DNA of 40,000 bases. It comes from an uncultured Alphaproteobacteria bacterium. Its GTDB lineage: Bacteria > Pseudomonadota > Alphaproteobacteria > Rhizobiales > Beijerinckiaceae. Location of the stretch: NCBI GenBank assembly GCA_963851175.1, contig CAWKNU010000002.1, positions 308,357-348,356 of the forward strand, written 5' to 3'. The position numbers and the translations under genes are program-made. Shown here piece by piece: positions 2,567 through 19,316 of the stretch (positions within the stretch are counted from its first letter, which is position 1; the number at the start of each line of letters is the position of its first letter). The notes under the pieces are model-generated. The model had not been told where the DNA came from, searched no databases, and was given only the letters and a program-made list of their open reading frames with translations.

Positions 2567-2597
2567 ATTGGGTAAAATGGATTTTTTGACCGGCGGA

Positions 2598-2821: not shown

Positions 2822-2928
2822 GTGAGCGGTTCGAGACAACAAAGAGATTGACCTAACCCGAGACTAACACGCGCGCCAAGGCGGCCCGGGCGTGCGGTTC
2901 ACACCCGGGGCAGCCAGCGGCGCGGTCT

Positions 2929-3444: not shown

Positions 3445-3473
3445 TGTTGTCTCCCTTGGACCCACCTGCCGAA

Positions 3474-3498
3474 AACTATCCAGCGGGGCCAAGGTTCC
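3474..3498 (-). promoter_or_regulatory. Possible EcfG (general stress sigma) type promoter for the csbD-like gene
   Basis: The minus strand reads GGAAC-N16-AGTT about 30 nt upstream of the RBS. The alphaproteobacterial EcfG consensus is GGAAC-N16/17-CGTT, and csbD genes are typical regulon members. Confidence 0.3.
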
Positions 3499-3574
3499 GG
3501 TCTAGGCCAAGTCAAGGCGATAAAGCCGGTTCCCATGCCGGGCGCGGCTCGATCAAGGGCGACTGCCGTTAGGT

Positions 3575-4234
3575 TTAGCCGCGGGTACCGCGCTTGCGCG
3601 TCCGAGCAGGCGCCTTGGCGGCGGGGGTCGCCCCGTGCTCATCGAACCCAACGAGAATCGTGTAGTCTTCATCGGCATTGGTCTGCAGCAGTGGTACCGT
3701 CAACGGCTCCGGCACCAGCGTGAAGTCGCCCTCGGTCTGGCCTGACGCGACCGTGGCAGCCACCTGGTACAGTTTTGCCACCGCGGGCTTCTGGTCGCTT
3801 TCGCGACGGACTGCGATTCGGACCGGGATGGAGAACGTGCCGGGTGCGCCCGCCGGTCCAAGCAGCACCCGCCCCTCGACCCCGACCTTGATCACGATCT
3901 CCTTGCCGGCTCGCGAACATTCCCGAGCGACGTCCCCCATCGAATATTGGTAGCGCACATTGTCGTTGCTCTGGTCGGCACCGTTGTAGACCCGAATCGA
4001 TGCGGTTCCGTCCAACACCTCGATGGGGGGGCATCGCAGCGGCTCTTCCTTGTTGCCCGCTACCGTCGCAACCGCCGCAGGATGGGTGGTGTTGAAAGCG
4101 AGCAGATTGCCGAGCGCCGAGCCGGAGCCCCCCTTCGAGGCGAGGAAATCGTCCCCGCCCCCCGCGCAGCCGGCCAGAGAGACGGCGACCAGGCACATCG
4201 CCGCTCCAAAACATGCAACCACCGCTCGTTTCAT
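3575..4234 (-). CDS. Lipoprotein of unknown function
   Basis: MKRAVVACFGAAMCLVAVSLAGC is a signal peptide with a lipobox (LAGC). ATG at 4234 follows GGAG. The listed 438-aa ORF is an upstream over-extension. Confidence 0.75.
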   Translation of the reverse strand: MKRAVVACFGAAMCLVAVSLAGCAGGGDDFLASKGGSGSALGNLLAFNTTHPAAVATVAGNKEEPLRCPPIEVLDGTASIRVYNGADQSNDNVRYQYSMGDVARECSRAGKEIVIKVGVEGRVLLGPAGAPGTFSIPVRIAVRRESDQKPAVAKLYQVAATVASGQTEGDFTLVPEPLTVPLLQTNADEDYTILVGFDEHGATPAAKAPARTRKRGTRG

Positions 4235-4290
4235 TCCACGCTCCGCCTTGCACGTTCCGGCGTGCCCCCGATCCCCACCACGCGTGCGGG

Positions 4291-4824
4291 TCAGGGAAGC
4301 TTTTCGAATCCGTCCTTGAAACCGGTCAGGGTCATCGGAATGCCTATACCCTCTTCCGGGGTCTGAAAGATGATGAAGGTCGCCGTCGTGCCGTTGCGCA
4401 ACTGGTCGACGAGCTTGTCCTCCATGGTGACCTCGGCGATGCAGCCTGTCGGCAGACATCGCACAAAGCCGGCCCGGCCGATGTCGGCTTGGTCGACCTT
4501 CAGGCCCAATCCGGACGGCAACAGGACGCCCAAGGGCGCCACCACCCTGAGAAGCCGGCTCTTGCCATCCGCGGTCTTCAAGACGATTACCACCAGATTG
4601 ACGTTGGGCCGATCCTCGGCGGCAACGCTCTGAATCAGCGCGCATTGCTCGCGGCTGGCGCCGGGCGGAGTTTCGCACCGCATCTCCCAATCGCCGTATT
4701 TGGCCTTGACCACCCCTTGCGCCACGGCCCCATTGGTGGTGCCGCAGAGCAGAACGAGCCCTAACCCCAGGACCGATCGAACCCCATGGATGGCGCCCGA
4801 ACGCCATGCCCGCTTCGCTCGCAT
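4291..4824 (-). CDS. Invasion-associated locus B (IalB) family periplasmic protein
   Basis: A signal peptide is followed by ...KYGDWEMRCETPPGASREQCALIQSV...LRVVAPLGVLLPSGLGLKVD...FVRCLPTGCIAEV..., the IalB family pattern. The start could instead be 4836. Confidence 0.8.
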   Translation of the reverse strand: MRAKRAWRSGAIHGVRSVLGLGLVLLCGTTNGAVAQGVVKAKYGDWEMRCETPPGASREQCALIQSVAAEDRPNVNLVVIVLKTADGKSRLLRVVAPLGVLLPSGLGLKVDQADIGRAGFVRCLPTGCIAEVTMEDKLVDQLRNGTTATFIIFQTPEEGIGIPMTLTGFKDGFEKLP

Positions 4825-5044
4825 CGCGCTCGCCATTCCGTCTCCAAATCCAGGCCGAGCTGCCCGGTACATCGCGATCACACCGCGCCACCCTGCACTG
4901 GGTATCGGTCGCATGCTGTCCCGCCCCATCTCTCGGCTGCGTAACAAATAGGCCGCGAGTGTCAAGCCGATGCCGGAGCCCCGCACGAGGCCATGGCTCC
5001 GTGCAGACCCGGGCATGCCGGCGCAGACCTGCCCCGCCGCTCGA

Positions 5045-7363
5045 TCACCTGACCGCGCCGGCGTTCGCGGGTGCGCCGTTGAGTGCCGCAAACACCCGCG
5101 AGGGCGTCGCCGGCATGTCGATGTGGATAACACCGCCGGCGCGATACAGCGCGTCCACCACGGCGTTCATCACGGCTGGACAGGCTCCGATCGTGCCGGC
5201 CTCCCCGGCGCCCTTCAACCCGAGCGGGTTGGTGGTGGACGGGATGTTGCGGGTCTTGAAGTTGATGAACGGAACGTCGGCGGCGCGTGGCAGGCAGTAA
5301 TCCATCAGGCTCGCCGTCACCAATTGCCCGTCCGACCCGTAGACCGTGCGTTCCAGCAAGGCCTGCCCGACTCCCTGGGCCACGCCGCCATGCACCTGTC
5401 CGGCAAGAAGCAGCGGGTTCAGGGTCATGCCGAAGTCGTCGCAGATCGTGTAGCGCTCGACCGCCACGATGCCGGTCGTCGGATCGAGTTCGACCTCGCA
5501 CACATGCGTGCCGTTCGGGTAGGTGGCCTGCGGCGGGGTGTACTCCTCGGTGGCGGTCCGGATCTGTTCCGTGGCGCCCGGGAGCTTGGCGATCTGCTCG
5601 TAGCTGATCGCCCTGTCCGTACCTGCGACCCGCACGCCGCCGTCAGCAATCTCGAGGTCCCCTACGGCGGCCTCAAGTTCTTCCGAAGCGAGCTCGGTCA
5701 GCTTGCGGGCCAGCGTGTCGGACGCCCGCGACACCATCGCGGCCCCGACCGGAATGGAACGCGAGCCGCCCGTGCCGTGACCGGTCTTCACCCGGTCGGT
5801 GTCGCCCTGCACGACGCGTACGCGTTCGAGCGGAACATCCAGATATTGGGAAACGGTCTGGGCATAGGCGGTGGCATGGCCTTGGCCATTCGACTGCGTG
5901 CCGACCAGAACCGTGAAGGTCCCATCCGGCTCGAGCGCAACGGACCCCTCCTCGCCATCGCCCCAGGCGGTGCATTCGATATAGCTGGCGAAGCCGATGC
6001 CCCGAACGGTTCCGCGCTTCTTGGCATCCTCGGCCCGCCCCGCAAAGCCGGAATAGTCGGCCGCGGCCAGCGCTTCGCGCATGGCGCCTTCGAAGTCCCC
6101 GACGTCGTAAGTGCGATCGGTCTGGGTCTTGTAGGGCATCTGCGAGGACTTGACGAAATTGCGGGCCCGCAATTCTTCCCGCGGGATGCCGGTCTCGCGG
6201 GCGCAGGTATCCACGAGTCGCTCCAGCACATAGGCGGCTTCAGGTCGCCCGGCGCCTCGGTACGCGTCCACTGGAACCGTGTTGGTATAGATCCCGCGGC
6301 AGCGCGCATGCACCAGCGCGATATCGTAGGTCCCGGTCGCCATCGTGGCCCCGAGCCAGGGGATGTAGGGCCCGAACTGCGACAGGTAGGATCCGAGATT
6401 GCCGAGGATGTCCACCCGCATGGCCAGGAACCGGCCGTCCTTGTCGAGCGCCATGGAGGCCGTGGTGTAATTGTCGCGGCCCTGGGCATCGCCCAGGAAA
6501 TGCTCGGACCTGTCGGAAACCCATTTCACCGGGCGGCCGGTACGCTTGGCGGCAACCAACAGCAGCGGGTATTCGCGGTACACGACCGCCTTGGTGCCGA
6601 AACCGCCGCCGACGTCGGGCGTGATCACGCGCAGCTGTTCGGGTGGGATCTTCAGGATGTTCTCGCTCAGCGAAGCGCGCAATCCGTGGACGCCCTGGCT
6701 GCTGGTCGTCAGCGTATAGCGGCCCGAGCTCGGGTCGAACTCGCCCGAAGCGGCACGCGGCTCGAGATAGTTGGCGACCAGGCGATTGTTGACGACGGTG
6801 AGGCTGACCACCTTGGCGGCCGACGCGAAGGCGGCATCGGTCCCGGCCTTGTCGCCAAGTTCCTTTTCATAGGCGATGTTGGTGGGCTCTTCGGCCCAGA
6901 TCGAGGGCGCCCCAGGCGCGATCGCGTCCGTCACTTCGACGACCGCGGGAAGCGCTTCGTACTCGACCTCGACGGCTTCGGCCGCCTCGCGGGCCATCTC
7001 GATGCTGTCGGCCACGATCATCGCGACCGCATCCCCGACATGGCGCACGGTTCCATCGGCCAGGATCGGATAGACCGGCTGCCGCATCATGCTGCCGTCG
7101 GTATTGTCCAGCGGCGCCAGGCAAGGCAGACCACCCAGATCGGAAACGTCGGCCGCGGTCAGGATGAGCTTGACGCCCGGCAGGGCCGCCGCCTGGGCGG
7201 TGTCGACGGTGAACCTGGCGTGAGCGTGCGGCGAGCGCAGGAATACCGCATGCAAGCTGCCGACCCGCTCGACATCGGCCGTGTACTGCCCCTGCCCCGT
7301 TATGAATTTCGCATCTTCGACCCGCTTGACCGGCTGACCTATTCCGAACTTCATCGGTTTCAT
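5045..7363 (-). CDS. Xanthine dehydrogenase/CO dehydrogenase family molybdopterin-binding large subunit (form II CoxL-like)
   Basis: The 772-aa protein starts MKPMKFGIGQPVKRVEDAKFITGQGQYTADV (a/b hammerhead start). It contains the active-site loop VDAYRGAGRPEA (AYRGAGR, the form II type, not the AYxCSFR of true CODH) and GTGGSRS. ATG at 7363 follows GAGGAA. Confidence 0.9.
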   Translation of the reverse strand: MKPMKFGIGQPVKRVEDAKFITGQGQYTADVERVGSLHAVFLRSPHAHARFTVDTAQAAALPGVKLILTAADVSDLGGLPCLAPLDNTDGSMMRQPVYPILADGTVRHVGDAVAMIVADSIEMAREAAEAVEVEYEALPAVVEVTDAIAPGAPSIWAEEPTNIAYEKELGDKAGTDAAFASAAKVVSLTVVNNRLVANYLEPRAASGEFDPSSGRYTLTTSSQGVHGLRASLSENILKIPPEQLRVITPDVGGGFGTKAVVYREYPLLLVAAKRTGRPVKWVSDRSEHFLGDAQGRDNYTTASMALDKDGRFLAMRVDILGNLGSYLSQFGPYIPWLGATMATGTYDIALVHARCRGIYTNTVPVDAYRGAGRPEAAYVLERLVDTCARETGIPREELRARNFVKSSQMPYKTQTDRTYDVGDFEGAMREALAAADYSGFAGRAEDAKKRGTVRGIGFASYIECTAWGDGEEGSVALEPDGTFTVLVGTQSNGQGHATAYAQTVSQYLDVPLERVRVVQGDTDRVKTGHGTGGSRSIPVGAAMVSRASDTLARKLTELASEELEAAVGDLEIADGGVRVAGTDRAISYEQIAKLPGATEQIRTATEEYTPPQATYPNGTHVCEVELDPTTGIVAVERYTICDDFGMTLNPLLLAGQVHGGVAQGVGQALLERTVYGSDGQLVTASLMDYCLPRAADVPFINFKTRNIPSTTNPLGLKGAGEAGTIGACPAVMNAVVDALYRAGGVIHIDMPATPSRVFAALNGAPANAGAVR

Positions 7364-7558
7364 CAAGGGTTCCTCTGGCTTTGACGATCTGCCGGACCTT
7401 GCGGCGGCAAACGGTGCCGCTCCCAATACCACGCTCGGGGCAAGTTGGTACCCCGTTGCATGCGTCTAGGAGCGGCTTTGGCGTGCAATATGGGCTCGCA
7501 CGGAGGCGCTACGGCGCGCAGGATAGACGATGTCAGGATGCAGGGCTCGTCGCCGCCG

Positions 7559-9367
7559 CTAGCCAACCGCCTCCCGGGGCCGCGCTGCCGCCGCAGTTCC
7601 GGCCCGGATCACCTCGTCGCGCCGCTTGCGGGCCAAGGCCGCCTCGCCGCCGGTGGTGACGTGATAAAGGTCGAGTGTCTCGAACTCATCCGAGCGCGGC
7701 GGCTCGATCGCGGTATCGGTGTAGGTCATGCGGTCCGGTGCCGCGAGGACCTCCTTCAAGGTGGCTTTGGAGCGCCGATAGAAGCTCCAATATCCAGCCA
7801 CCTTGCGCAGCGTCTCGGCCCAATAGCGCGGGTAGAACGCCAGCGGGCTTTCGATCGGAAGCGTGCTGCGGCGATCGAGACGGGACTTGCGCCGGAACGC
7901 GCCACCCTCGAGCGGGTGCACGTTCTCGTAATCGATCATCAGCTTGAACCACATGATGGTGGACAGCGTGGTTCCGGGCCGACCGATAGGGTTGGCAGCG
8001 GCCCGGCGCAGGATCGTGCGGATGTGGTCGGGCGTGTAGAAAGCCTCCCAGGCAGCCCGATAGGCCTCTTCCCACTCGGAATCCGACATGGTCGCGTGGT
8101 GCGAGACCCGATGGTTCAGATCGTATTTGTTGACGTCGGGATCCATCCAGACGCCCTTCGCCAACATGGTCTTGTGGTCCTCCGAGCCCGGCAAGGGTGT
8201 CAGGAAGAAGAACTCCAGGATGTCCAGCGGCAGTTCGCGCTTGATGATCTCGATGTCGCGCAGGATCGAGGCCTTGGTGTCGGCCGGAAAACCCAGGATG
8301 TAGCCCGCATAGGTGATGGCCCCGTGGGTGCGCCACTTCTGCAGCATATCCCGGTATTCGGTGATCTTGTTCTGCCGCTTCTTGGCCGCGATGAGGTTGT
8401 CGGGGTTGATGTTCTCCAGCCCGATGAACACCCGGCGCACCCCGGCAAGGCCCGCCTTCTCGATGAAGTTCGGGATCTTGTGGCAGAGCGTGTCGACCTG
8501 GATCGTGAAGCCGATCTTCAGCCCCTCCGCGCGCAGTTCGATCATTTTGTCGAAAAGCACCTCCCAGCGCGAGTTGCGGGCGAAGTTGTCGTCGGTAATG
8601 AAGAACCGCTTGATGCCCTGGGCGTAGTTCTCCCGGATGATGTGCTCGAGGTCCTCCGGCGAGCGAAACCGGCTCTTGCGTCCCTGCACGTTGATGATCG
8701 TGCAGAACGAGCACTGGTAGGGACAGCCGCGGCCGAGATCGATGCTGGAGAGCGAGCCGGAGGTTCGCTTGACATGGGTGCGGGGCAGGATCGGCGGCGG
8801 CTCGCCTTCGAGCGGCGGCAGATCGTCCATGTAATTATAGATCGGCTGCAGCCCGGGCCCGGCGGCATCGCGGATCACCTGGTCGAGCCGACCGCTCTCC
8901 GCCTCGCCGGCGAAAAACGAAATGCCCAGGGCCTGGGCGTCCTTCATCTCGGCCGGCATCTCGGGCAGCATGGCGAGGCACCCGGAGACGTGGAAGCCGC
9001 CAATGCAGACCGGATAACCGGCCGCCATGAAGGGCTTGGCGAGATCGACGGCGCGCGGAAACTGGTTCGACTGCACGCCGACGAGACAGATGAGGCCCCG
9101 CCCGCCCGCCTTTTCGATCATGCGGACGATGCGCTCGGGACGGGTGCGGCGGTTGGTCTCGTCGAACGTGTGCAGACGAATGTCGACGTCAGGGCCAAGC
9201 ACCTGCCGCCGAACCAGGTCTTCGGCGAGCCCGTTCATGCAGGCCAAGGTGTTGGACGGAATCGCCGACCGGTACCACTGGATGGGGTATCCGTCGTCGT
9301 CGTAATGCGTCGGCTTTATCATTACGACGTTAAAAACGCCGCCGCGTGGCCCGGGGATCTGTTCCAT
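7559..9367 (-). CDS. Cobalamin-binding-domain (class B) radical SAM protein, paralogue A
   Basis: The 602-aa protein has the N-terminal domain FNVVMIKPTHYDDDGYPIQW...LVGVQSNQFPRAVDLAKPF...IGGFHVSG. The radical SAM cluster motif is GRGCPYQCSFCTI (CxxxCxxC). It also has ...FFITDDNFARN...FIGLENINP... and a ~200-aa C-terminal extension. ATG at 9367 follows CAGAGG. Confidence 0.9.
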   Translation of the reverse strand: MEQIPGPRGGVFNVVMIKPTHYDDDGYPIQWYRSAIPSNTLACMNGLAEDLVRRQVLGPDVDIRLHTFDETNRRTRPERIVRMIEKAGGRGLICLVGVQSNQFPRAVDLAKPFMAAGYPVCIGGFHVSGCLAMLPEMPAEMKDAQALGISFFAGEAESGRLDQVIRDAAGPGLQPIYNYMDDLPPLEGEPPPILPRTHVKRTSGSLSSIDLGRGCPYQCSFCTIINVQGRKSRFRSPEDLEHIIRENYAQGIKRFFITDDNFARNSRWEVLFDKMIELRAEGLKIGFTIQVDTLCHKIPNFIEKAGLAGVRRVFIGLENINPDNLIAAKKRQNKITEYRDMLQKWRTHGAITYAGYILGFPADTKASILRDIEIIKRELPLDILEFFFLTPLPGSEDHKTMLAKGVWMDPDVNKYDLNHRVSHHATMSDSEWEEAYRAAWEAFYTPDHIRTILRRAAANPIGRPGTTLSTIMWFKLMIDYENVHPLEGGAFRRKSRLDRRSTLPIESPLAFYPRYWAETLRKVAGYWSFYRRSKATLKEVLAAPDRMTYTDTAIEPPRSDEFETLDLYHVTTGGEAALARKRRDEVIRAGTAAAARPREAVG

Positions 9368-9390
9368 TCTGAGACCTCTGACTGGAGCCA

Positions 9391-9419
9391 CTCTTAGAGC
9401 GTGCCGACCTCAATATCAA
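9391..9419 (-). promoter_or_regulatory. Putative sigma70-type promoter of rSAM paralogue A
   Basis: The minus strand reads TTGATA-N17-TAAGAG. It lies inside a leader that is conserved with the one upstream of paralogue B. Confidence 0.3.
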
Positions 9420-9545
9420 AGCCGGAGGTTAGCCGGTCGGTCCGCCCGACCACTCGGCTCCGGCCAAAAGTTCGCGATCGGGTTCCGATCAGGCCCTTTC
9501 GATGCGCCCCGGACGGACTTCCTACGCCGCCCGGCCGCGACCCAC

Positions 9546-11363
9546 TCAACCGACCGCGACCTGCGGCCGGGCCGTGACGGCGCTCGCGGCCCGGATCGCC
9601 TCGTCCCGCCGCTTGCGGGCGAGCGCGGCTTCGCCCCCCGTCGTCGCATGATAGAGCGACAGTTCCTCGAACTCCTGGGTCTCCTGCGGCGTGATGGCCA
9701 CATCGGTGTAGCTCGCCCGGTCGGGTGCGTCGCGCACCTCCTTCATGATGGCCTTGAACTGCAGGATTGTGGACCAGTAACCGCCGAGCTTGCGGACGCT
9801 TTCGCGCACCATCCGGGGGTAGAACGCAAGCGGACTTTCGATCGGCAGGCCAGGGCGGCGGTCCTTGCGGAATTTGAGCCGCAACGCGCCGCCTTCGAGC
9901 GGATGCAGGTTCTCGTAGGCAATCATCAGGTGGAACCAGAGCAGCGTCGAGAGCAGCGACTTCAGGTAGCGCAAGCGGTTGACGCCAGCGCGCCGCAGTA
10001 TCGTCCTGATGTGATCGAGACTGTAATAGGACGCCCAGGCCGCCCGATAAGCCTCTTCCCATTCGGAATCAGACATCTTGCCGTGATGCGAGACGCGGTG
10101 GTTGAGATCGTATTTGTTGAGGTCCGGATCCATCCAGACGCCCTTGGCCAGCAGATTCTTGTGGTCTTCCGAGCCGGGGAGCGGCGTCAGAAAGAAAAAT
10201 TCCAGCAGGTCGAGCGGCAACTCGCGCTTGATGATCTCGACATCGCGCAGGATGCTTTCCTTGGTGTCGGCCGGAAAGCCCAGAATGTAGCCCGCGCAGG
10301 TCAGCGCACCGTGGTCGCGCCACTTCTGCATCATGGCCCGGTATTCCGTGATCTTGTTCTGCCGCTTCTTGGCTGCGATCAGGTTCTCGGGATTGATGTT
10401 CTCGAGCCCGATGAAGACGCGGCCGGCACCGGCGCGCGTCGCCTTCTCGATGAAGTTCGGGATCTTGTGACACAAAGTGTCGACCTGGATGGTGAAGCCA
10501 AGCACCATCCCTTCTTCCTCGCGCAGCTTGATGATGCGGTCGAAGAAGGCTTCCCAGTCCTTGTTGCGGGCGAAATTGTCGTCGGTGATGAAGAAGCGCT
10601 TGACCCCCTGGGCGTAGTTCTGGCGCAGGATGCGTTCGAGATCGTCGGCCGTACGGAAGCGGCTCTTGCGGCCCTGGACGTTGATGATGGTGCAGAACGA
10701 GCACTGGTACGGGCAGCCGCGTCCGAGATCGAGGCTCGAGAAGGTCCCCGTGGTTCGGCGCACCTTGGTGCGAGGCAAGATCGGCAGCGGCTCCCCGTCG
10801 AGTGCCGGCAGGTCGTCCATGTGATTGTAGAGCGGCGCCATCTTGCCCGCATAGGCGTCGCGCAGAACCTCGTCGAGGCGCCGGTCCTCGGCTTCGCCGG
10901 CGAACAGCGAAATGCCAAGCTCCTGGGCAGCACGGATCTCGGGGGGCAGTTCCGGCAGCATGGCGATGCAGCCGGAGACGTGGAAGCCGCCGATGCCGAC
11001 CGGCAGCCCGGCGGCCCGGAACGGCTTGGCGAGATCGACCGCGCGCGGAAACTGGTTCGACTGCACGCCCACGAAGCACACGAGGCCACGCCCGCCGGCC
11101 GTCTCGATCATGCGGATGATGCGCTCTGGGCGGACCCGGGTGTTTGTCTCGTCGAACGTATGGAGCCGGATCTGGACATCGGGGCCGAGCACCTGCCGAG
11201 TGGCCGCATCTTCGGCGAGTCCGTTCAGACAGGCCAGGGTGTTGGACGGGATCGCCGAGCGAAACCACTGGATCGGGTAGCCTTCGTCATCATAATGCGT
11301 AGGCTTGATCATCACGACGTTGAAGATGCTGCCGGCGCCGCCGGACCCTGAGACCTGCTGCAT
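9546..11363 (-). CDS. Cobalamin-binding-domain (class B) radical SAM protein, paralogue B
   Basis: The 605-aa protein is colinear with paralogue A along its full length. By eye, roughly three quarters of positions are identical (not computed). It has the same GRGCPYQCSFCTI motif. ATG at 11363 follows GAGAGG. Confidence 0.9.
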   Translation of the reverse strand: MQQVSGSGGAGSIFNVVMIKPTHYDDEGYPIQWFRSAIPSNTLACLNGLAEDAATRQVLGPDVQIRLHTFDETNTRVRPERIIRMIETAGGRGLVCFVGVQSNQFPRAVDLAKPFRAAGLPVGIGGFHVSGCIAMLPELPPEIRAAQELGISLFAGEAEDRRLDEVLRDAYAGKMAPLYNHMDDLPALDGEPLPILPRTKVRRTTGTFSSLDLGRGCPYQCSFCTIINVQGRKSRFRTADDLERILRQNYAQGVKRFFITDDNFARNKDWEAFFDRIIKLREEEGMVLGFTIQVDTLCHKIPNFIEKATRAGAGRVFIGLENINPENLIAAKKRQNKITEYRAMMQKWRDHGALTCAGYILGFPADTKESILRDVEIIKRELPLDLLEFFFLTPLPGSEDHKNLLAKGVWMDPDLNKYDLNHRVSHHGKMSDSEWEEAYRAAWASYYSLDHIRTILRRAGVNRLRYLKSLLSTLLWFHLMIAYENLHPLEGGALRLKFRKDRRPGLPIESPLAFYPRMVRESVRKLGGYWSTILQFKAIMKEVRDAPDRASYTDVAITPQETQEFEELSLYHATTGGEAALARKRRDEAIRAASAVTARPQVAVG

Positions 11364-11385
11364 TATGACCTCTCTGGCTCAGGAC

Positions 11386-11413
11386 ATTCTAAAGCGTGTC
11401 GACATTCATTCAA
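11386..11413 (-). promoter_or_regulatory. Putative sigma70-type promoter of rSAM paralogue B
   Basis: The minus strand reads TTGAAT-N16-TAGAAT, ending about 20 nt upstream of the ATG. Confidence 0.4.
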
Positions 11414-11561
11414 AGCAGCAAGTGCAACCGCCCTACTAACCACTTGACCGTCGCTTGGCGCCGAGGGCGAGCAATTCGTGTCGGCCCCGTCAAACCCATC
11501 ATAGCGAAAGCGCGTAACGAGCAGAGGCGATCACCATCGCGACCATTATCAGGGAGCCCAC

Positions 11562-12362
11562 ATGCTGCTTCGCAAATCCGGCGAAGACGTCATCGCCATT
11601 CCCCAGCCCAGCCATTCCTGGCTCTCCGGCCAGATGGCGCGGGCCTGGGGCAACGAGCGTTTCGCGCGCCCGGAGCCGCATGCCGAGTTCTGCCTCGGAG
11701 CCGAGCAGCACGACCTCGGCTGGCTCGGTTGGGAACTGGCTCCCGAGCTCGACCCCGACACCGGACTGCCGCGGGAGTTCATGCGACTGCGACCGCCCGA
11801 CCATGTGGCGCTCTGGACGGATGGGGTGAGGCGCGCCCGGCTGTACGGCAGCTATCCGGCCCTGCTGGTGTCGCTGCACGCGGAAACCATCTATTCGCGC
11901 CACTTCGATTTCGACGCGGCCACCCCGGACGACAGGCGCATCGTTCGATCCTTCCTGGATGATCAGCGCGCGTTTCGCCATGGCGTGACCGCCGCGCTGC
12001 ATGCCGACAAGCGCTTGGCAGCCGTGACGACCGAGGACGTGCTCGAACATAATCGGCTGCTGGTTGCGGCGCTGGATTGGATGTCGCTGCAGATCTGCTG
12101 GGGCGTTACCCAGGAGGCGCGCCTGCCCGAGGTTCCCGTGACCGGCGAGGAGAGGGTCGAACTCACGCTCCGGCCGGGTACACGTGTGGCGGAGACCGTT
12201 GTGGTCGATCCCTGGCCCTTCGCGGTGGATCAACTCGAGGTTCGGGCGGAGGGTCGTTTCCTCAAGGGTCGGTTTGCAAGCGACGAGGCCCTGCATTCGG
12301 CGCTCAAGCGCGCCGATCCGAGGCTGGTCACGACGATACTAGTGCCCAACCCCGACTCTTGA
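11562..12362 (+). CDS. Hypothetical protein, DUF3891-like (assignment tentative)
   Basis: The 266-aa ORF has ATG after GGGAG. Its N-terminus MLLRKSGEDVIAIPQPSHSWLSGQMARAWG resembles the DUF3891 N-terminal pattern as I remember it (..I.Q..H...SG..A..W). This has not been verified by search. Confidence 0.6.
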   Translation: MLLRKSGEDVIAIPQPSHSWLSGQMARAWGNERFARPEPHAEFCLGAEQHDLGWLGWELAPELDPDTGLPREFMRLRPPDHVALWTDGVRRARLYGSYPALLVSLHAETIYSRHFDFDAATPDDRRIVRSFLDDQRAFRHGVTAALHADKRLAAVTTEDVLEHNRLLVAALDWMSLQICWGVTQEARLPEVPVTGEERVELTLRPGTRVAETVVVDPWPFAVDQLEVRAEGRFLKGRFASDEALHSALKRADPRLVTTILVPNPDS

Positions 12363-12500
12363 CCGCGACCATTGTTGGCGTCGGACTACATCCCGCTAGC
12401 AAATGGGCATCGCGGCCTAAATCCCACACCTCTAAAAAATTTCAGTTAACGCCTTCAAATTCGATTTGGTTCCCCATAATCTCGAAAATTATCTCTAAAA

Positions 12501-14312
12501 GTGGGGTGGCCCGTGTCAACCTTCCACATCGAGATCATCAAGCCGTCGCACTACGACAAGGATGGCTACGTTATTCAATGGCTGCGGGCGTGGATCCCGT
12601 CGAATTCCATGGCGTGCCTCTACTCGATAGCACAGGACTGCGCAGGCCGCCGGGCTTTGGGCGACGACGTCGCGATCGAGATCGCGGCCTACGACGAGAT
12701 GAACATCAAGATCCCGATCGGGCGCATCGCACGCACGATCAAGCGTCCCGGTCACGCCGGGCTTGTCTGCCTCGTGGGGGTCCAGTCGAACCAGTTTCCG
12801 CGGGCCATGGCCATCGCGAGACAGTTCCGGCAACGCGGCGTCGCGGTCGCGATCGGCGGCTTCCATGTCAGCGGCGTGCTCTCGATGCTGAAGGAATTGA
12901 CGCCCGAGTTGCAGGAGGCAGTCGACCTTGGCGTTACCCTCTACGCCGGGGAAGCCGAGGAGCATTTCGAGGCCTTGCTGAAGGACATCTACGCCGGCCA
13001 GGCCCAGCCGCTCTATAATTACATGGACGATCTGCCGAACCTCCAGGGACAGACCATCCCGTGGCTGCCGCGAGATATCGTCAAACGCTATGATGGCGTG
13101 ATCTCATCCTTCGATGCCGGGCGCGGCTGTCCCTTCCAGTGTTCGTTCTGCACGATCATCAACGTCCAGGGACGCAAGTCGCGCTGGCGCGATGCCGACG
13201 ATATCGAGCGAATCGTGCGCGAGAATGCCAGGCAGGGCATTTCGCGTTTCTTCATCACCGACGACAACTTCGCGCGCAACCGGAATTGGGAGCCGATCTT
13301 CGACCGGATGATCGAGTTGCGCGAGCAGCAGGGTCTAAGGCTGTCTTTCCTGATCCAGGTCGACACGCTCGCTCATAAGATCCCGAACTTCATCGAGAAG
13401 GCGGTTCGCGCCGGATGCCGCTACGCTTTCATCGGGCTCGAGAGCATCAATCCCGACAATCTCGCCTACATGAAGAAGAACCAGAACCGGATCACTGAAT
13501 ACCGGAAGATGTTTCAGGCGTGGAAAACTGCCGGCGCTGTGACCTATGCGGGATTCATCATGGGGTTGCCGGGAGACACCCCGCAGTCGATCCGCAGGGA
13601 TGTGGAGATCGTCCAGCGTGAACTGCCGGTCGATCTGCTCGAATTCACCATGCTGACGCCGCTGCCTGGATCGGAAGACCATCAGAAGCTGCATCAGCAG
13701 GGCATCTGGATGGATCCGGATCTCAACAAGTACGATCTCGAAACCGCCACCGTCGAGCATCCACGCATGAGCCGCGACGAGTGGCAACAATGCTATCGTG
13801 ACATGTGGGACTGGTATTACACGGATGAGCACATCGAGCGCATGATGCGCCGCAATTTCGCCTACGGCATCAATCCTGTCCGCATCATGCGCGGCGTGCT
13901 GCAAGTGTACGGCGCGATGGCGTTCGAGGGGGTTCATCCGCAGCAGTGCGGCTATTTGAGGCGGAAGGACCGAACCCAACGCCGGCCCGAGCTTCCCCAA
14001 GTGCCCGCGGGGCTGTTCCACATCCGCCACGCCTGGAAGAGCGCCGTTAAATACGTCCGCTTTGCACGCTACGGATGGAAGCTGATCCGCATGCGAGACC
14101 AAGTTCGCAAGGACCCGGCCGCCCGGAACTATTCGGACCTCGCGATCACACCGGTGGTCGACTCGGCCGAAGAGAGCCTCGACATGTTCGCTCTGAACAA
14201 CTCGTCAAAGGCCGCCGTCGCAAAGGCCCGACGCCAAACTCGGCGGACCACGGTGGCAGACGAAGCGCCGGTCTTGCATGAACAGGGCGCACAGCCGGAG
14301 GTGACGGCCTAG
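12501..14312 (+). CDS. Cobalamin-binding-domain (class B) radical SAM protein, paralogue C (divergent copy)
   Basis: The 603-aa protein has the same architecture: FHIEIIKPSHYDKDGYVIQW, GVQSNQFPRAM, GGFHVSG, GRGCPFQCSFCTI, FFITDDNFARN. It is clearly more diverged than A is from B, and its C-terminal tail differs. The start is GTG at 12501 or GTG at 12513. Confidence 0.9.
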   Translation: MGWPVSTFHIEIIKPSHYDKDGYVIQWLRAWIPSNSMACLYSIAQDCAGRRALGDDVAIEIAAYDEMNIKIPIGRIARTIKRPGHAGLVCLVGVQSNQFPRAMAIARQFRQRGVAVAIGGFHVSGVLSMLKELTPELQEAVDLGVTLYAGEAEEHFEALLKDIYAGQAQPLYNYMDDLPNLQGQTIPWLPRDIVKRYDGVISSFDAGRGCPFQCSFCTIINVQGRKSRWRDADDIERIVRENARQGISRFFITDDNFARNRNWEPIFDRMIELREQQGLRLSFLIQVDTLAHKIPNFIEKAVRAGCRYAFIGLESINPDNLAYMKKNQNRITEYRKMFQAWKTAGAVTYAGFIMGLPGDTPQSIRRDVEIVQRELPVDLLEFTMLTPLPGSEDHQKLHQQGIWMDPDLNKYDLETATVEHPRMSRDEWQQCYRDMWDWYYTDEHIERMMRRNFAYGINPVRIMRGVLQVYGAMAFEGVHPQQCGYLRRKDRTQRRPELPQVPAGLFHIRHAWKSAVKYVRFARYGWKLIRMRDQVRKDPAARNYSDLAITPVVDSAEESLDMFALNNSSKAAVAKARRQTRRTTVADEAPVLHEQGAQPEVTA

Positions 14313-14416
14313 GCATTCGGCCCGGGGAGAGAGCGCCTACCCCCTTCAAGGACCTGCCGAACACACCAAACCTGATCCATGTGCGGGGCGTCTCGCGGCT
14401 TTGTTCTTGGTGCCAT

Positions 14417-14476
14417 GGGGGCGACCCGAGGCTGGTCACCACCACGCTCGTGCCGGAACCCGTCTCGGCGCCTTGA
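14417..14476 (+). pseudogene. Remnant of the 3' end of a second DUF3891-like gene
   Basis: 14420-14476 aligns with 12312-12362 at roughly 37 of 48 nt by hand. It translates to GDPRLVTTTLVPEPVSAP*, compared with ADPRLVTTILVPNPDS*, the C-terminus of the 11562..12362 protein. I recognised no intact upstream ORF. Confidence 0.5.
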
Positions 14477-14491
14477 TCGGACAGGTTGGGA

Positions 14492-15460
14492 TCACGCGAA
14501 GGACGCCTCCAGGCGCGCCGCATCGATGGCTCCGGTCCGGTAGGTTTCCCCGCCTTCGATCGCGGTCACGATGACGGCCGCGGGACTGAAGAGATGCGGG
14601 TCGATGCCGTAGAAATCGCCGCCGACGCGCGCAAAGATCTCGCGAAAGGGCTCGCCGTAATCGCGCGACATCGTGCTCGGAAGATGCTCGGCCAGACGAC
14701 GCGCATCGGGGGCCGGACCTGTCACGAAGAGATGCACCAGCCCCCCATAGATGAGGGCGTCGTTGGTCCGGCCCATCGCCACCCCATGATCGGGATGGGG
14801 TGGAGGCAAAGGCGCCGATCCAAGACCCTCGACGATGCGCTCCAGCGGAAAATCGGCCTGGTGAGCCTTGGACAGAGCCACTTCAAGCACGCGGGCCGCG
14901 ACCTGCACGCTCCCTGACAGGGACTCCGTGGGCACCAGGATAATGGTCAATTGGAGCGGATCGATCCTGCAAGCCCTTGCGACCTCCGCCACCACGGACG
15001 CGGGCGGCGGGGTGTGGCTCTCGACGACCAGCACGCTTTGCCCGGCCGTTTCGGAATAGCCGAGAAGCTTGAAGATCGGCTCGAGCCCCGCCAGTGCCCG
15101 CGCCGGCCCGGAGCCGAGCCCGTCATAGGAGTCCTTGGCATCGCGTCCAAGCTTCCAGCCCGCATATTGGCTGCAGAGGCAGGCCACCACCGGCTGGGAA
15201 GAGCGAACCGACACGCGCCAGGGCCAGAGCGGTGTCAGCGCCGAATCCTGCAGGCTGATGTCGGCCAGTCCACCCATGGTGATGCGGGCCAAAGCCAGAC
15301 CGGCCCCGATGCTCCCAGGCACCTTGGCCCCAGTGTCGATCAGGCGCTCGCCGAGCGACCCGACCGATAGCGCGACCCGTAAAGCCGCTGCGTCGTCGAC
15401 GAGATCTTCCACCAGGCGCAAGGCCCGGCGGTTGAGACCGAAATCCCGCCGCTCCACCAT
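14492..15460 (-). CDS. mch: Methenyltetrahydromethanopterin cyclohydrolase
   Basis: The 322-aa protein contains ...IDTGAKVPGSIGAGLALARITMGGL..., CSQYAGW, LSGSVQVAARVLEVALSKAH, GRTNDALIYGG and LFSPA. These are all hallmark Mch blocks. ATG at 15460 follows GGAGGAGGAGG. Confidence 0.9.
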   Translation of the reverse strand: MVERRDFGLNRRALRLVEDLVDDAAALRVALSVGSLGERLIDTGAKVPGSIGAGLALARITMGGLADISLQDSALTPLWPWRVSVRSSQPVVACLCSQYAGWKLGRDAKDSYDGLGSGPARALAGLEPIFKLLGYSETAGQSVLVVESHTPPPASVVAEVARACRIDPLQLTIILVPTESLSGSVQVAARVLEVALSKAHQADFPLERIVEGLGSAPLPPPHPDHGVAMGRTNDALIYGGLVHLFVTGPAPDARRLAEHLPSTMSRDYGEPFREIFARVGGDFYGIDPHLFSPAAVIVTAIEGGETYRTGAIDAARLEASFA

Positions 15461-15495
15461 GATCGCTGCTCCTCCTCCTCCGCTGGTACGAGCCC

Positions 15496-16317
15496 TCAGT
15501 TCCAGAAATCGGGCAGGACGGGGCTGAGTTTTCCGCCGATCCGAACGGGCGCAATCTGGAGGGCCAGGCCGGTCGCATCGTCGGTTTCCACCGCTACGCC
15601 GCAGAGAGTCGCGGGCCCGTTTGCCGGCTCGAAGCGGCCGCCCGGCAGCTTGCGGATGAAGCGCCGGATCGGTTCCTCCTTCTCGACCCCGATGACGCTG
15701 TCGTAGTCGCCGGTCATGCCGGCATCGGTGATATAGGCCGTGCCGCCCGACAGCACGCGGTGGTCGGCTGTGGGTATGTGGGTGTGGGTGCCGACCACCA
15801 GGCTCGCCCTTCCGTCGAGCACGTGCCCGATGGCGTTCTTCTCGCTGGTCGCCTCGGCATGGACGTCGACGATCACGGCGTCGCACGCCCGCCCGAGCGG
15901 GCAGGCCTCGATCTCCCGTTCGAGGCCCGCGAGGGGATCGTCGAGGGCGTCCATGAAGACGCGACCCATGACGTTCATGACCAGGACCTGGCGGCCGTCG
16001 GCCAGGGTCACCAGGGTGGCGCCCCGGCCCGGTGTTCCAGGCGGATAATTGAGCGGGCGCACGAGCCGGGGCTGCCGATCGATGAAGATCAGGGCTTCGC
16101 GCTGATCGAAGGCATGGTTGCCGAGTGTCACCGCGTCGGCTCCGGCCCCCAGAATGTCGTTGCATATGGCTTCGGTGATGCCCGCCCCACCGGCCGCATT
16201 CTCGCCGTTCACCACCACGCAATCGAGCGCGTAGCGGGCTCGCAGGCCGGGCAGTTCGGCCAGGATTGCGGCGCGGCCGGAGCGGCCCATCACGTCACCA
16301 ACGAACAGAATGCGCAT
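15496..16317 (-). CDS. YmdB-like metallophosphoesterase (TIGR00282 family)
   Basis: The sequence is MRILFVGDVMGRSGR...VVVNGENAAGGAGIT...TLGNHAFD...DVHAEATSEKNA...GTHTHIPTAD...ITDAGMTGDYDSVIG. Confidence 0.85.
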   Translation of the reverse strand: MRILFVGDVMGRSGRAAILAELPGLRARYALDCVVVNGENAAGGAGITEAICNDILGAGADAVTLGNHAFDQREALIFIDRQPRLVRPLNYPPGTPGRGATLVTLADGRQVLVMNVMGRVFMDALDDPLAGLEREIEACPLGRACDAVIVDVHAEATSEKNAIGHVLDGRASLVVGTHTHIPTADHRVLSGGTAYITDAGMTGDYDSVIGVEKEEPIRRFIRKLPGGRFEPANGPATLCGVAVETDDATGLALQIAPVRIGGKLSPVLPDFWN

Positions 16318-16321
16318 TCGT

Positions 16322-16909
16322 CTAGCCCCGCCCGCAGAACATCACGTCGGTCTCGGTGATGATGGCGTCGAGCGGCTGGTCGTGCGGTTCGGTCGGCACG
16401 CTTGCGACCTCCTGGACCGAAAACGCGACCCCGATCGCGAGGACCGGCTTGCGGGTGCGCAGCGCCGCCAGGGTATTGTCGTAGAACCCCGCCCCATAAC
16501 CGAGGCGGAAGCCGCGCCTGTCGAAGGCGGCGAGCGGGACGAACAAAAGATCGGGATCGACCGAAGGAGCGGTGGAAAGCGGTTCGGGGATGCCCCAATT
16601 GCCGGGCGCAACCGGATCGCCCGATCGCCACAGAAGAAACCGCAAGGCGTGGCCGCGCGCGACCGTCACGGGCAGCGCCGTGGCAATGCCGGCCTGCGTC
16701 AGGGCCTGGAAAAGGGGAACCGTATCTGCCTCGTCGCGGATGGGATGGTAGACCGAGACCGTGCTACCTCCACCGGCATGGCGGTGGACGAGGTCCGGGC
16801 CGATCTCGGCGAGTCGTTGGGCGAAGCTCTGCCGCACGCCGGGCGAGACTCTGGCCCGCTGGGCCAGAACATCCTTCCGCAGCGCAGTCTTGTCCGCGGG
16901 AAGATTCAT
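16322..16909 (-). CDS. 5-formyltetrahydrofolate cyclo-ligase
   Basis: The sequence contains ...KTALRKDVLAQR... and ...LFVPLAAFDRRGFRLGYGAGFYD.... The GYG.G.YD motif is typical of the family. ATG is at 16909, and the stop lies 4 nt before the ymdB-like start. Confidence 0.85.
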   Translation of the reverse strand: MNLPADKTALRKDVLAQRARVSPGVRQSFAQRLAEIGPDLVHRHAGGGSTVSVYHPIRDEADTVPLFQALTQAGIATALPVTVARGHALRFLLWRSGDPVAPGNWGIPEPLSTAPSVDPDLLFVPLAAFDRRGFRLGYGAGFYDNTLAALRTRKPVLAIGVAFSVQEVASVPTEPHDQPLDAIITETDVMFCGRG

Positions 16910-16931
16910 CGAGGCAGGACGTCCAGGAAGT

Positions 16932-17128
16932 GCGGAGCCACAGTGGCCGTGGGACATCGATCCCGGGAACCTACAACGTAGGTGGGCGCCATGTGACCAA
17001 GCCCACGAGCGAGGTCAGGGACAGCTCCCTTCAGAATCGATAAGGCCCCGGGAATACAGATCCACACGCACCCCGCAGCCCCGCCCGACCAATGTAGAGC
17101 CGCCCGGCCAAAATTGCCAGAGCCCCGC
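16932..17128 (-). ncRNA. ssrS: Candidate 6S RNA (SsrS)
   Basis: This non-coding gap lies immediately upstream of, and co-directional with, the 5-formyl-THF cyclo-ligase gene, the classic ssrS-ygfA synteny. On the minus strand the 5' arm GCGGGGCTCTGG..TGGCCG pairs with the 3' arm CGGCCA CTGTGGCTCCGC. Inner helices CTACA/TGTAG and GGT-GGGCG/CGCCC-ACC flank a large central region containing a small hairpin, GGGAgctgTCCC. The ends are approximate. Confidence 0.5.
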
Positions 17129-17174
17129 GGACGGATTTCATGCCCCGGCGCAGCATCTGCGGTGCGTCCTCGCA

Positions 17175-17858
17175 TCAGGCCGCAAGGCTGCGAAAAAGGC
17201 CGAGTCCGTCGGTCCCGCCGGTCAGCGGGTCGACGGCGTTTTCCGGATGCGGCATCAGGCCCAGCACGTTGAGGCTCTCGGAATAGATGCCGGCGATGTG
17301 GTTGCGCGACCCATTCGGGTTGCCGCCATGGCCGGGATCGCCTTCCGGACCGCAATAGCGGAGCGCTACTCGCCCCTCGCCCTCGAGCCGTTCGATCGTG
17401 GCATCGTCCGCCGTGTAGTTGCCTTCCCCGTGCGCCACGCAGAACTGAACCACCTGGCCGCGATCGTAGCCCGCCATGAACGGGGTATCGGTGCGCTCGA
17501 CCTTCAGATGCTGCATGCGGCACACGAAGTGCAGATCGGCATTGCGCATGAGGACGCCCGGCAGCAGGCCCGCCTCGCAGGCGACCTGAAACCCGTTGCA
17601 GATGGCGAGAACCCGCCCGCCCCGGCCGGCATGGGCCCGCACCGCATCCATGATGGGGGAGCGCGCCGCGATGGCGCCGCAGCGCAGGTAATCCCCATAG
17701 GAGAAGCCGCCCGGCAGGAGCACGAGGTCGGTGCCGGCCGGCAGGCTCGTTTCGTTATGCCAGACGAGGTCCGGCTCGCGTCCGGTCACGAGCCGCAGGG
17801 CCCGCGCGGCGTCCCGCTCGCGATTGATCCCGGGGAACAGGACGATCGCCGCCCTCAT
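17175..17858 (-). CDS. purQ: Phosphoribosylformylglycinamidine synthase, glutaminase subunit PurQ
   Basis: The sequence is [16 protein letters not shown]...[12 protein letters not shown]...ICNGFQ...MPHPE. The ATG overlaps the purS stop (ATGA). Confidence 0.93.
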
Positions 17859-18106
17859 GGGCGCCCGTCCAGGATCTCGATGGCGTAGTCCTCGACCACG
17901 AGATTGGCCAGCAGCCGTTCGCAAGCCGCCCGCAACTCCGCCTCGGCCTTGGCGGGATCGTTTTCGGCAACGACGATGTCGAAGAGCTTGCCCTGCCGCA
18001 CGCTGTCGATCGCCGGAAAACCGAGCCCGTGCAAGGCGCCCTCGATGGCCTTTCCTTGAGGATCGAGAACGCCGGCTTTCAGCGTGACGGTGACGCGCGC
18101 ATGCAT
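17855..18106 (-). CDS. purS: Phosphoribosylformylglycinamidine synthase subunit PurS
   Basis: [30 protein letters not shown]...VRQGKLFDI... is 83 aa and typical of PurS. The listed ORF start at 18166 is an upstream extension. Confidence 0.88.
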
Positions 18107-18355
18107 GGAGAGTGATCTCGGGTCGGGAACTCTCCCAGGCTTAGCCAGGATGATGCCTCGAAGCAATCCGGCGAACCTGTGCCGAGAACTCCTGGTCGGG
18201 CCCTTCGGCTCAGCATGGGGCGGAAAGGGCCGTCACCCGATTGCCCTGGCATCCTGGTCGGCTTTCCTTGGCTTCGGGAACCTGCGATGAGGGCATCGCG
18301 CCACAGATCGAGCGAACCTGGCTCCGGCGCGCCATCCATCGGTCGAAGGAGAACC

Positions 18356-19013
18356 ATGACCCCGCAAATGATCGTGTTCGACTGCGACGGCGTCCTGGTC
18401 GACAGCGAGGTCCTCTCGATCCGCGCCATGACGGGCGTGCTGAAGGACGCCGGGGTTCCGGTGACCTACGGAATGATCGCCCGCTACTTCGGCATGAAGC
18501 AGGCCGACATCCTGATCAAGCTGGCCAACGAGACCGGGGCGAACATCGGGGTCGAGGTCGCCGAGCGGATCTGGCCGGCCATCCGGGATCTGTTCGAGCG
18601 GGAACTCAGGCCGATGCCGGGCATCATCGAGTTTCTCGAGCGGCATTCGGAGGTCAAACGCTGCGTCGCCTCCTCGTCCAGTCCGGAGCGCATCAGGAAC
18701 AGCCTGCGCCTGACAGGGCTGACCGGATATTTCAACGAGGCCATCTTCAGCTCCTCGCAGGTTGCGCGCGGCAAGCCGGCCCCGGATCTGTTCCTGTTCG
18801 CTGCCGCCACGATGGATGTCGATCCGCGATCCTGCGTGGTGATCGAGGATTCCCAATTCGGCGTAAAGGGCGCCATCGCGGCCGGCATGAGCCCGATAGG
18901 CTTCGTGGGCGGAAGCCATATCGAGGCCCATCATGCGGATGCGCTGGTGTTCAGCCGGAGCGATCCATGTCGAGAGTTCCTGGGCCGCGGTGGAACAGCG
19001 CCTCTTCGGCTGA
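18356..19013 (+). pseudogene. HAD-IA family hydrolase with an apparent +1 frameshift near the C-terminus
   Basis: The sequence is MTPQMIVFDCDGVLVDSE...ASSS...GKPAPDLF...VVIEDSQFGVKGAIAAGM...GGSHIEAHHADALV. The original frame then runs into an Arg-rich tail to 19189 that overlaps a minus-strand lipoprotein ORF. The next frame gives SAGAIHVESSWAAVEQRLFG*, ending at 19011-19013. The switch is near 18947-18951. The 658-nt span is 3n+1. Confidence 0.6.
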
Positions 19014-19053
19014 ACCGAACATCGCGATCGGAGGAGCGCCCCTGCGGCGCAAT

Positions 19054-19194
19054 TCAGCGTGGCCCGGGAGCCTCATGGCACGAGTGGGGCTTGGCGAAGG
19101 GATCGACCAGGAAATTGTCGGCGCACTTGTCGCAGGCCGCCAGGGTGGCCGCGATCAGCAGGAGGCCGACGAACCGAAAGGCGCGATGACGCAT
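19054..19194 (-). CDS. Candidate 46-aa small lipoprotein
   Basis: MRHRAFRFVGLLLIAATLAACDKCADNFLVDPFAKPHSCHEAPGPR has a signal peptide plus a lipobox (LAAC). GGAG lies about 11 nt upstream. No homology was recognised. Confidence 0.4.
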   Translation of the reverse strand: MRHRAFRFVGLLLIAATLAACDKCADNFLVDPFAKPHSCHEAPGPR

Positions 19195-19316
19195 CGTGGG
19201 TGAGGCTCCGTTGACGCCGGGGTCCTCCGGCGATGGTCGCGATCGCACGATAGCAGATGGCAGGGCTTCGCGCAGCAAGCTCGCTTTCGCCCGGGCCAGC
19301 GTGTAGAAGCCGCCGC

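Follow-up and report, generated by a model that had tools for sequence, protein, structure and literature searches.

Three genes for paralogous radical S-adenosylmethionine (SAM) enzymes lie close together in the 40,000-nucleotide stretch of Beijerinckiaceae contig CAWKNU010000002.1 analyzed here (the window), next to genes for a DUF3891 protein, a CoxL-like molybdenum (Mo)-hydroxylase large subunit, and methenyl-tetrahydromethanopterin (H4MPT) cyclohydrolase (mch). The question that this locus raises is whether these genes form one pathway or came to lie side by side independently. An earlier reading of the DNA, called here the original prediction, took them for an uncharacterized small-molecule or lipid modification locus. 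We consider it probable that the three enzymes, referred to as A, B, and C, are functional stand-alone members of one large, uncharacterized, and horizontally mobile radical SAM family and that they share no pathway with their neighbors; elsewhere, members of this family are nearly always single genes in unrelated contexts.

Gene A (7559..9367, minus strand) encodes 602 amino acids (aa) from an ATG at 9367 and is identical to the public gene call P0025; an alternative GTG start at 9391 (7559-9391, minus strand) would give 610 aa. Gene B (9546..11363, minus strand; 605 aa) is identical to public protein P0001, and gene C (12501..14312, plus strand) encodes 603 aa. All three matched the Pfam radical SAM domain PF04055 (E = 4e-16, 3e-17, and 4e-19, respectively) at 60 to 70 bits against a cutoff of 29.5, which places them in the radical SAM superfamily, and no other Pfam domain was found in them. 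Each open reading frame (ORF) lies in the frame with high third-position GC content in our ORF scan of the window, and the translations contain GVQSNQFPRA, GGFHVSG, GRGCP(Y/F)QCSFCTI, FFITDDNFARN, and FIGLE(N/S)INP, with a single CxxxCxxC cluster motif in each; gene C has IEIIKPSHYDKDGYVIQW where the motif quoted earlier has V.MIKP. The description of three paralogues of about 600 aa with a common architecture was therefore correct, as was that of A and B as a close tandem pair and of C as an older duplicate: A and B share 75% identity throughout (605 aa) and B and C 53% over 582 aa (BLASTP, E = 0 for both), and C falls in a distant clade of our neighbor-joining (NJ) tree. The neighbors, too, are placed as had been noted, with the DUF3891 gene between B and C, the CoxL-like gene downstream of A, and mch convergent with C.

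Whether C belongs to a unit with these neighbors can be judged from a close relative, L083, whose 1.12-Mb contig is 95 to 97% (~96%) identical in DNA to the window and carries A, B, and the CoxL-like, DUF3891, and mch genes in the same order. The blastn alignment of the two runs at 95.4% identity from 1707 to 12358 and at 96.6% from 14422 to 24528, with no match between. The 2,063 bp that are absent from the collinear relative (12359..14421; the C segment) hold C as their only gene, an AT-rich spacer of 45% GC upstream of it (12363..12500, plus strand), and a terminator-like hairpin with a T-run downstream of it (14382..14397, plus strand), and nothing else; the hairpin is a weak candidate, as site counts were not above the shuffled expectation. 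The GC content of the segment is 0.599 versus 0.644 for the window, and 3% of equal-sized windows are this low. On each side of the segment stands one copy of an imperfect direct repeat of 45 nucleotides (nt) that stems from the DUF3891 3' end. Copy 1 (12314..12358, plus strand), at the left junction, is the 3' end of that gene itself; copy 2 (14422..14466, plus strand), at the right junction, is a remnant of the same end that reads ...DPRLVTTTLVPEPVSAP* and is 78% identical to copy 1. L083 has a single copy, in which the front part of copy 1 seems to continue directly into the sequence that follows copy 2, a junction compatible with an empty site and also with loss of the segment by deletion between the two repeats. 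As for a donor, the noncoding flanks of the segment matched nothing among the loci that we fetched, in none of which the spacer had a homologue.

In more distantly related genomes (L084, L088, and L089/L090), the DUF3891 gene (75 to 80% identical to that of the window) and mch are convergent, with ends 10 to 20 bp apart, and are followed by ymdB, a 5-formyltetrahydrofolate ligase gene, purQ, and purS, and neither flank carries a radical SAM gene; this block is also syntenic in L083. Since DUF3891 and mch adjoin there without a radical SAM gene, the DUF3891/mch block is ancestral. By this comparison, A and B were added in the common lineage of the window and L083, and C would most parsimoniously have been gained in the window lineage alone. 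The two ~96%-identical genomes thus display a clean presence/absence polymorphism of one paralogue, and what looked like a cluster of three enzymes with DUF3891 and mch is a product of lineage-specific history.

Family members in other genomes do not have these neighbors either. Across 82 family loci (±10 kb each), tblastn searches for DUF3891 and mch found neither in any (0/82), and all-against-all clustering of the ORFs revealed no conserved neighbor: the largest neighbor cluster, common to at most 18 loci, comprised generic ABC ATPases, and other shared neighbors (ABC transporter components and short-chain dehydrogenases) were confined to small lineage-specific subsets. A CoxL-like gene adjoins a family member in only three of these loci (L019, L022, and L025), divergently, in the opposite arrangement, and with 47% CoxL identity. 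The lead was rejected by a reciprocal scan, in which none of 80 metagenome loci with CoxL homologues (44 to 77% identical, one at 77%) had a radical SAM gene within 6 kb. A link to DUF3891 was likewise rejected, since that gene occurs without a radical SAM gene not only in the relatives named above but also in L086, where it stands beside an ATP synthase operon.

Because C is absent from L083, no neighbor is conserved across the 82 family loci, and the enzyme was found at 0/80 CoxL loci, we conclude that these genes are not a locus. That A, B, and C act together with DUF3891, the CoxL-like protein, and/or mch in the modification of one small molecule, lipid, or C1 cofactor, for instance in pterin C-methylation, is now very improbable and largely refuted by synteny. 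The genes do adjoin in the window and in L083, the mch gene is genuine (TIGR03120, 331 bits), and a CoxL-like gene recurs beside a family member in the three loci mentioned; however, the original prediction had itself named a non-conserved adjacency of DUF3891, CoxL-like gene, and mch as grounds against it, and the neighborhood comparison shows just that, so that a conserved cluster of these genes with the radical SAM enzyme was discarded. The idea of a pterin or C1-carrier substrate based on mch fell as well, as the adjacency of mch is the result of a single-gene insertion in the window lineage only. Further, the family occurs in Rhizobium, Phyllobacterium, and Roseibium, taxa that to our knowledge lack the H4MPT pathway.

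The contexts in which family members do occur are diverse even among orthologues of B (72 to 84% identical), each of which lies in a different one. A B-type gene that is 72% identical (L002, 10001-11902, opposite strand) sits alone between rpsL and rpoC in the otherwise canonical ribosomal/RNA polymerase block, a striking insertion of one gene, and others follow metK (L175) or a DegP-like protease gene (L174) or lie near a 4-alpha-glucanotransferase gene (L173). An A-type gene (L001) is found among aromatic-catabolism-like genes, and two plasmid homologues are stand-alone too. Pairs occur in addition: L079 holds a tandem pair of divergent family paralogues, and in the cultured Afifella pfennigii (GCA_000688515.1; L176, 8001-11617), a C-type copy (74% identical) precedes by 60 bp another family member (56% identity to B), which adjoins a DDE transposase at the contig end.

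If the genes belong to no common locus, they might be redundant or decaying duplicates without distinct function, as the presence of three copies within 7 kb and the fragmented gene calls for A and B in L083 could suggest. We find this scarcely credible. The ORFs of A, B, and C are uninterrupted, and in the comparison with L083, the ratio of nonsynonymous to synonymous substitutions (dN/dS) is 0.05 for A and 0.03 for B. Such strong purifying selection contradicts decay and bears out the earlier view that the copies have been retained. These values are below those of the CoxL-like gene (0.08), the DUF3891 gene (0.13), and mch (0.27), and A and B are therefore functional. The fragmentation in L083 (5850-10690) stems from about three to six single-base indels each in A, B, and DUF3891 relative to the window; such indels, which are typical of assembly error, are most likely assembly or sequencing errors and not marks of pseudogenes, since dN/dS is low and DUF3891 is affected too.

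The copies also differ in age and origin. A and B have diverged to a synonymous distance (dS) of ~0.8 and a nonsynonymous distance (dN) of 0.17, and in the tree, A pairs with L001, B pairs with L002, and C stands far off with L003-L012. Given this dS and a separate closer relative for each of them in another genome, the tandem duplication of A and B is old, which likewise speaks against redundant copies, and the placement of C in a separate clade indicates that it was acquired separately from A and B.

An AlphaFold2 model of C, built on an alignment of 44 diverse homologues (pLDDT 92; confident up to residue ~555), has three parts, namely, an alpha/beta Rossmann-like N-terminal domain (N-domain; residues 7-173) with alternating strands and helices, a radical SAM barrel, and a helical C-terminal part with a long basic helix (503-537). 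A Foldseek search of the PDB with this model ranked AprD4 first (6FD2; E = 1e-18, TM score of 0.72 on AprD4 length), followed by the cobalamin enzymes QCMT/MgmA, CysS, TokK, TsrM, and OxsB and then by MiaB; the alignments to AprD4 and to the five cobalamin enzymes span 490 to 566 columns, and the family profile recovered PDB sequences in the same order (AprD4, E = 8e-25; QCMT, E = 9e-17). Three NCBIfam alignments (TIGR04013, TIGR04014, and TIGR04072) start at C residues 73 to 104, i.e., they reach the N-domain. The model, the full-length Foldseek alignments, and the NCBIfam alignments all place an N-terminal Rossmann-type domain before the barrel, which is the class B architecture.

Conservation across the 44 homologues is consistent with a single cluster: C210, C214, and C217, the three cysteines of CxxxCxxC, are the only invariant ones, and there is thus no auxiliary cluster. 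The N-domain is strongly conserved, with Y18, R101, G119, G120, and G150 invariant, and a basic motif near the C terminus is conserved as well (H479, G484, R494, and R495). The original prediction had called the enzymes cobalamin-type radical SAM enzymes. Radical SAM chemistry and a class-B-type domain order stood up; the cobalamin label is unproven, since the closest solved structure, AprD4, binds no cobalamin. The B12-binding domain PF02310 was not detected in A, B, or C at E < 0.01, and a B12-type N-domain is weakly indicated by sequence profile alone (PF02310 matches 2 of 44 family members, none of them A, B, or C). A 2026 review (PMC12931638) counts more than 100 sequence groups of radical SAM enzymes with a B12-type domain, mostly uncharacterized; AprD4 and ArsL homologues have a domain of this type and yet do not bind cobalamin, each group with at least one characterized enzyme includes C-methyltransferases, and no sequence feature separates the methylases from other chemistries (PMC12931638).

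We hypothesize that each enzyme works alone. Its [4Fe-4S] cluster would reductively cleave SAM to a 5'-deoxyadenosyl radical, which would abstract a hydrogen from an unactivated C-H bond of a substrate that the barrel and the Rossmann-like domain hold between them; the basic C-terminal motif suggests that this substrate may be an anionic or phosphorylated small molecule, and substrate or site most likely varies among the three paralogues. As the second half-reaction, our best guess, to which we would give somewhat less than even weight, is that methylcobalamin bound in the N-domain donates a methyl group. Methylation is favored because most characterized enzymes of this architecture are cobalamin-dependent C-methylases.

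Tentatively, and with only slightly less weight than methylation, the enzymes may instead be cobalamin free like AprD4, the radical SAM 1,2-diol dehydratase of apramycin biosynthesis, in which case the N-domain would only shape the pocket and the radical would set off a dehydration, an elimination, or a rearrangement in a small hydroxylated compound, for example, a sugar or glycoside. AprD4 acts without cobalamin (PMC12931638) and is the best match by both structure and profile; the profile alignment extends over the post-barrel segment as far as residue ~436. It shares with the family the order of Rossmann-like N-domain, radical SAM barrel, and post-barrel segment (PGSE.H...W.D...N.YD..H...MS), and the lack of PF02310 in A, B, and C and of a cobalamin riboswitch in the window agrees with a cobalamin-free reaction. 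However, identity in the structural alignment is ~20%, and A, B, and C score 40 to 52 bits on NF033070 against an equivalog cutoff of 500, by which membership in the AprD4 family of diol dehydratases was rejected. The sequence match to AprD4 covers the barrel and not the N-domain, whose loops are very conserved (GVQSNQFPRA and the invariant arginine and glycines) in a pattern fitting a cofactor site; hidden Markov model (HMM) alignments to the cobalamin family QCMT (TIGR04014) do reach the N-domain, and most characterized enzymes of this architecture bind cobalamin. AprD4 (457 aa) also lacks the helical basic C-terminal region of ~120 aa that is specific to the A/B/C family, and in the profile alignment it has one extra residue between cluster cysteines 2 and 3 relative to the CxxxCxxC of the family. 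Its gene lies in an antibiotic gene cluster together with that of its reductase, AprD3, whereas the A/B/C family genes are stand-alone.

The class I cobalamin enzymes with structures (QCMT/MgmA, 9CCB; TokK, 7KDX; TsrM, 6WTE; CysS, 9N1B; and OxsB, 5UL2) match in overall fold over 490 to 590 aligned columns, and the HMM alignment to QCMT extends into the N-domain. They differ from C in that identities are 12 to 18%, that no family threshold is reached, and that PF02310 is undetected on the side of A, B, and C. Ile219, two residues past the third cluster cysteine, aligns with W215 of TokK and E236 of TsrM, both positioned between cobalamin and the cluster; the residue here is hydrophobic. Moreover, the N-domain in the model of C has seven strands, including a conserved N-terminal hairpin (Y18-D19...G22), compared with the five described for class I.

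A third possibility is that the enzymes modify macromolecules, be it rRNA, tRNA, or a protein of the ribosome or of translation, for instance as horizontally transferred factors that, like Cfr, RimO, or MiaB, serve in resistance or tuning. A gene that stands alone without a partner, the homologue between rpsL and rpoC, the shifting contexts of close orthologues, which would suit an accessory gene, the conserved, strongly basic C-terminal motif together with the long basic helix of that region, and the presence of MiaB among the structural matches all speak for it. We nevertheless regard it as quite improbable: the proteins lack both auxiliary cluster cysteines and any domain, TRAM or otherwise, for binding nucleic acids, just one homologue occupied the rpsL-rpoC position, and several deeply divergent paralogues per genome are better explained by varied small substrates than by a single conserved site on a macromolecule. 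Membership in the MiaB/RimO methylthiotransferases was rejected on the same grounds, with TIGR00089 scores of 29 to 32 bits against a cutoff of 251, no TRAM match, and no conserved cysteines beyond CxxxCxxC.

Several points weigh against our reading of A, B, and C as self-sufficient enzymes or against the methylation favored for them. First, tandem divergent paralogues recur in the window, L079, and L176 and might cooperate as a heteromer or in successive steps. Second, the CoxL-like subfamily adjoins the family in two arrangements (window and L083; L019, L022, and L025), a weak indication of a lineage-restricted link. Third, similarity to C served to rank the 80 genome loci from which family contexts were taken, which leaves those of the A and B types less well sampled, and the NJ tree is a simple one that carries no support values. 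Finally, the chemistry of A, B, and C is something we only infer, as are the weights given to methylation, cobalamin-free catalysis, and macromolecule modification (with the remainder going to other reactions), and the nearest solved relative, at ~20% identity, is a cobalamin-free dehydratase, with PF02310 undetected in all three proteins.

No NCBIfam family could be assigned to A, B, or C, as about 20 class B families all scored 16 to 73 bits against cutoffs of 250 to 775; every score is below its cutoff, and the earlier view that no characterized orthologous group claims these proteins thus held. The best-scoring families were HpnJ, BchE, and PhpK, of the hopanoid, bacteriochlorophyll, and phosphinate pathways, respectively, which share the class-B-type architecture (C versus HpnJ, 73 bits against 577.6; A and B versus BchE, 55 bits against 481). 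Their scores are 6 to 10 times below the curated cutoffs of 481 to 600 bits, the alignments lie mostly in the barrel, and the window contains no hopanoid, photosynthesis, or phosphonate genes near A, B, and C. Equivalog membership in HpnJ, BchE, HpnR, PhpK, QCMT, KedN5, or BzaD was rejected, all of them being below cutoff (QCMT, TIGR04014, 55 versus 360). C-type homologues bear the JGI name YgiQ/UPF0313 (COG1032), and the two have in common the COG level, a stand-alone gene, and the lack of a known function; TIGR03904 scores of 16 to 20 bits against a cutoff of 462 identify the name as a coarse COG label and not as membership. General library searches gave no MJ0619-type match, and no search aimed at MJ0619 homology was made.

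Two other roles were considered and rejected. A radical SAM enzyme that matures ribosomally synthesized and posttranslationally modified peptides would be accompanied by a precursor gene, but the intergenic gaps around A, B, and C hold no small ORF credible as a precursor peptide, no auxiliary cysteine motifs were found, and ApyD and rSAM_ocin_1 scored far below their cutoffs. The sole Rfam match in the window is a 6S RNA and not a cobalamin riboswitch; as had been reported, neither a precursor-peptide ORF nor a B12 riboswitch is present. As for antiphage defense, PADLOC gave only a core-domain match of 27 to 40 bits to the candidate PDC-M51A.

The family to which A, B, and C belong is large and widespread. 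Protein searches with its members returned at least 8,000 matches at E < 1e-10, a profile search returned 1,204 clusters at 50% identity (E < 1e-30), and at least 587 loci in a genome scan carry family members. These are distributed over many orders of Alphaproteobacteria as well as Gammaproteobacteria, Acidobacteriota, Binatia, Planctomycetota (Scalindua and Pirellulales), and Anaerolineae, and identities of 52 to 60% persist across phyla. Our literature searches found no paper describing or characterizing a member. The three enzymes thus form an uncharacterized group of class-B-architecture enzymes, already generically labeled by NCBI, and their gene arrangement is no new system. With more than 1,200 clusters at 50% identity, at least five phyla, and no member with a known substrate, it ranks with the larger unexplored families encountered in this analysis.

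A bolder reading, to which we assign only a minor chance, is that the substrate is a lipid or small molecule common in bacteria of soils and the sea, that the family acts on it by chemistry new to this architecture, and that the family spreads as a self-contained single-gene unit able to land inside conserved housekeeping blocks. Family genes do occupy housekeeping sites, between DUF3891 and mch in the window, between rpsL and rpoC, and after metK. If this reading is true, the window and L083 strains would offer a naturally occurring near-isogenic comparison, one strain having C and the other lacking it, in which to search for the product. Guilt by association is uninformative for function here; given the presence/absence of C and the strong selection on the copies, comparative metabolomics and direct biochemistry are the sensible route.

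The neighboring genes have features of their own. The DUF3891 gene (11562..12362, plus strand; 266 aa; PF13030, E = 5e-51) is a neighbor and no conserved partner of the family. Its predicted structure (AlphaFold2, pLDDT 95) is a helical bundle with a C-terminal beta domain, for which Foldseek found nothing significant in the PDB (best E = 0.05). The invariant residues H18, H50-D51, H81, H106, and D172 resemble an HD-type metal site, but the Pfam HD model matched only 1 of 33 DUF3891 homologues (E = 0.18); the protein may represent an unrecognized metalloenzyme fold. Our literature searches found no paper mentioning DUF3891. Upstream of B, at 11413-11386, is a sigma-70-like site of a kind whose counts are not above chance.

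The mch gene (14492..15460, minus strand; PF02289, E = 1e-109) exceeds the TIGR03120 cutoff of 229 and is convergent with C. A longer ORF of 576 aa (14492-16222, minus strand) was rejected as the mch gene: its mch domain comprises residues 263-575, the YmdB gene (15496-16317) overlaps its upstream part in another frame, and mch in relatives is ~322 aa long, so that the extension is an artefact of an open upstream frame. The CoxL-like gene (5045..7432, minus strand), recognized by Pfam and NCBIfam matches, is located downstream of A and, like DUF3891, is no conserved partner. It has no adjacent CoxM or CoxS gene for a medium or small subunit, and its product falls below every curated cutoff (best, glyceraldehyde dehydrogenase alpha, 588 bits versus 790); it is an orphan, unclassified Mo-hydroxylase subunit.

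The rest of the window is ordinary chromosome, with genes for ATP synthase F0 subunits, IalB, YmdB, 5-formyltetrahydrofolate cyclo-ligase, PurQ, haloacid dehalogenase (HAD)-type hydrolases, ExoD, choline sulfatase, LysR, UbiB, UbiE, and Fpg. A second low-GC stretch (0.595) extends from 36001 to 38000. A GCS2-type glutamate-cysteine ligase gene at 22854-24237 (minus strand) is split into two overlapping ORFs (22854-23624 and 23287-24237), whereas L083 has one intact 460-aa gene; the split is a frameshift or assembly error, as the window carries one additional base near 23572 compared with L083. The 6S RNA is located at 16931-17084 (minus strand; RF00013, 78 bits against a gathering score of 46), directly upstream of the 5-formyltetrahydrofolate cyclo-ligase gene (16322-16957, minus strand), an arrangement that we take to be the classical ssrS-ygfA pairing.

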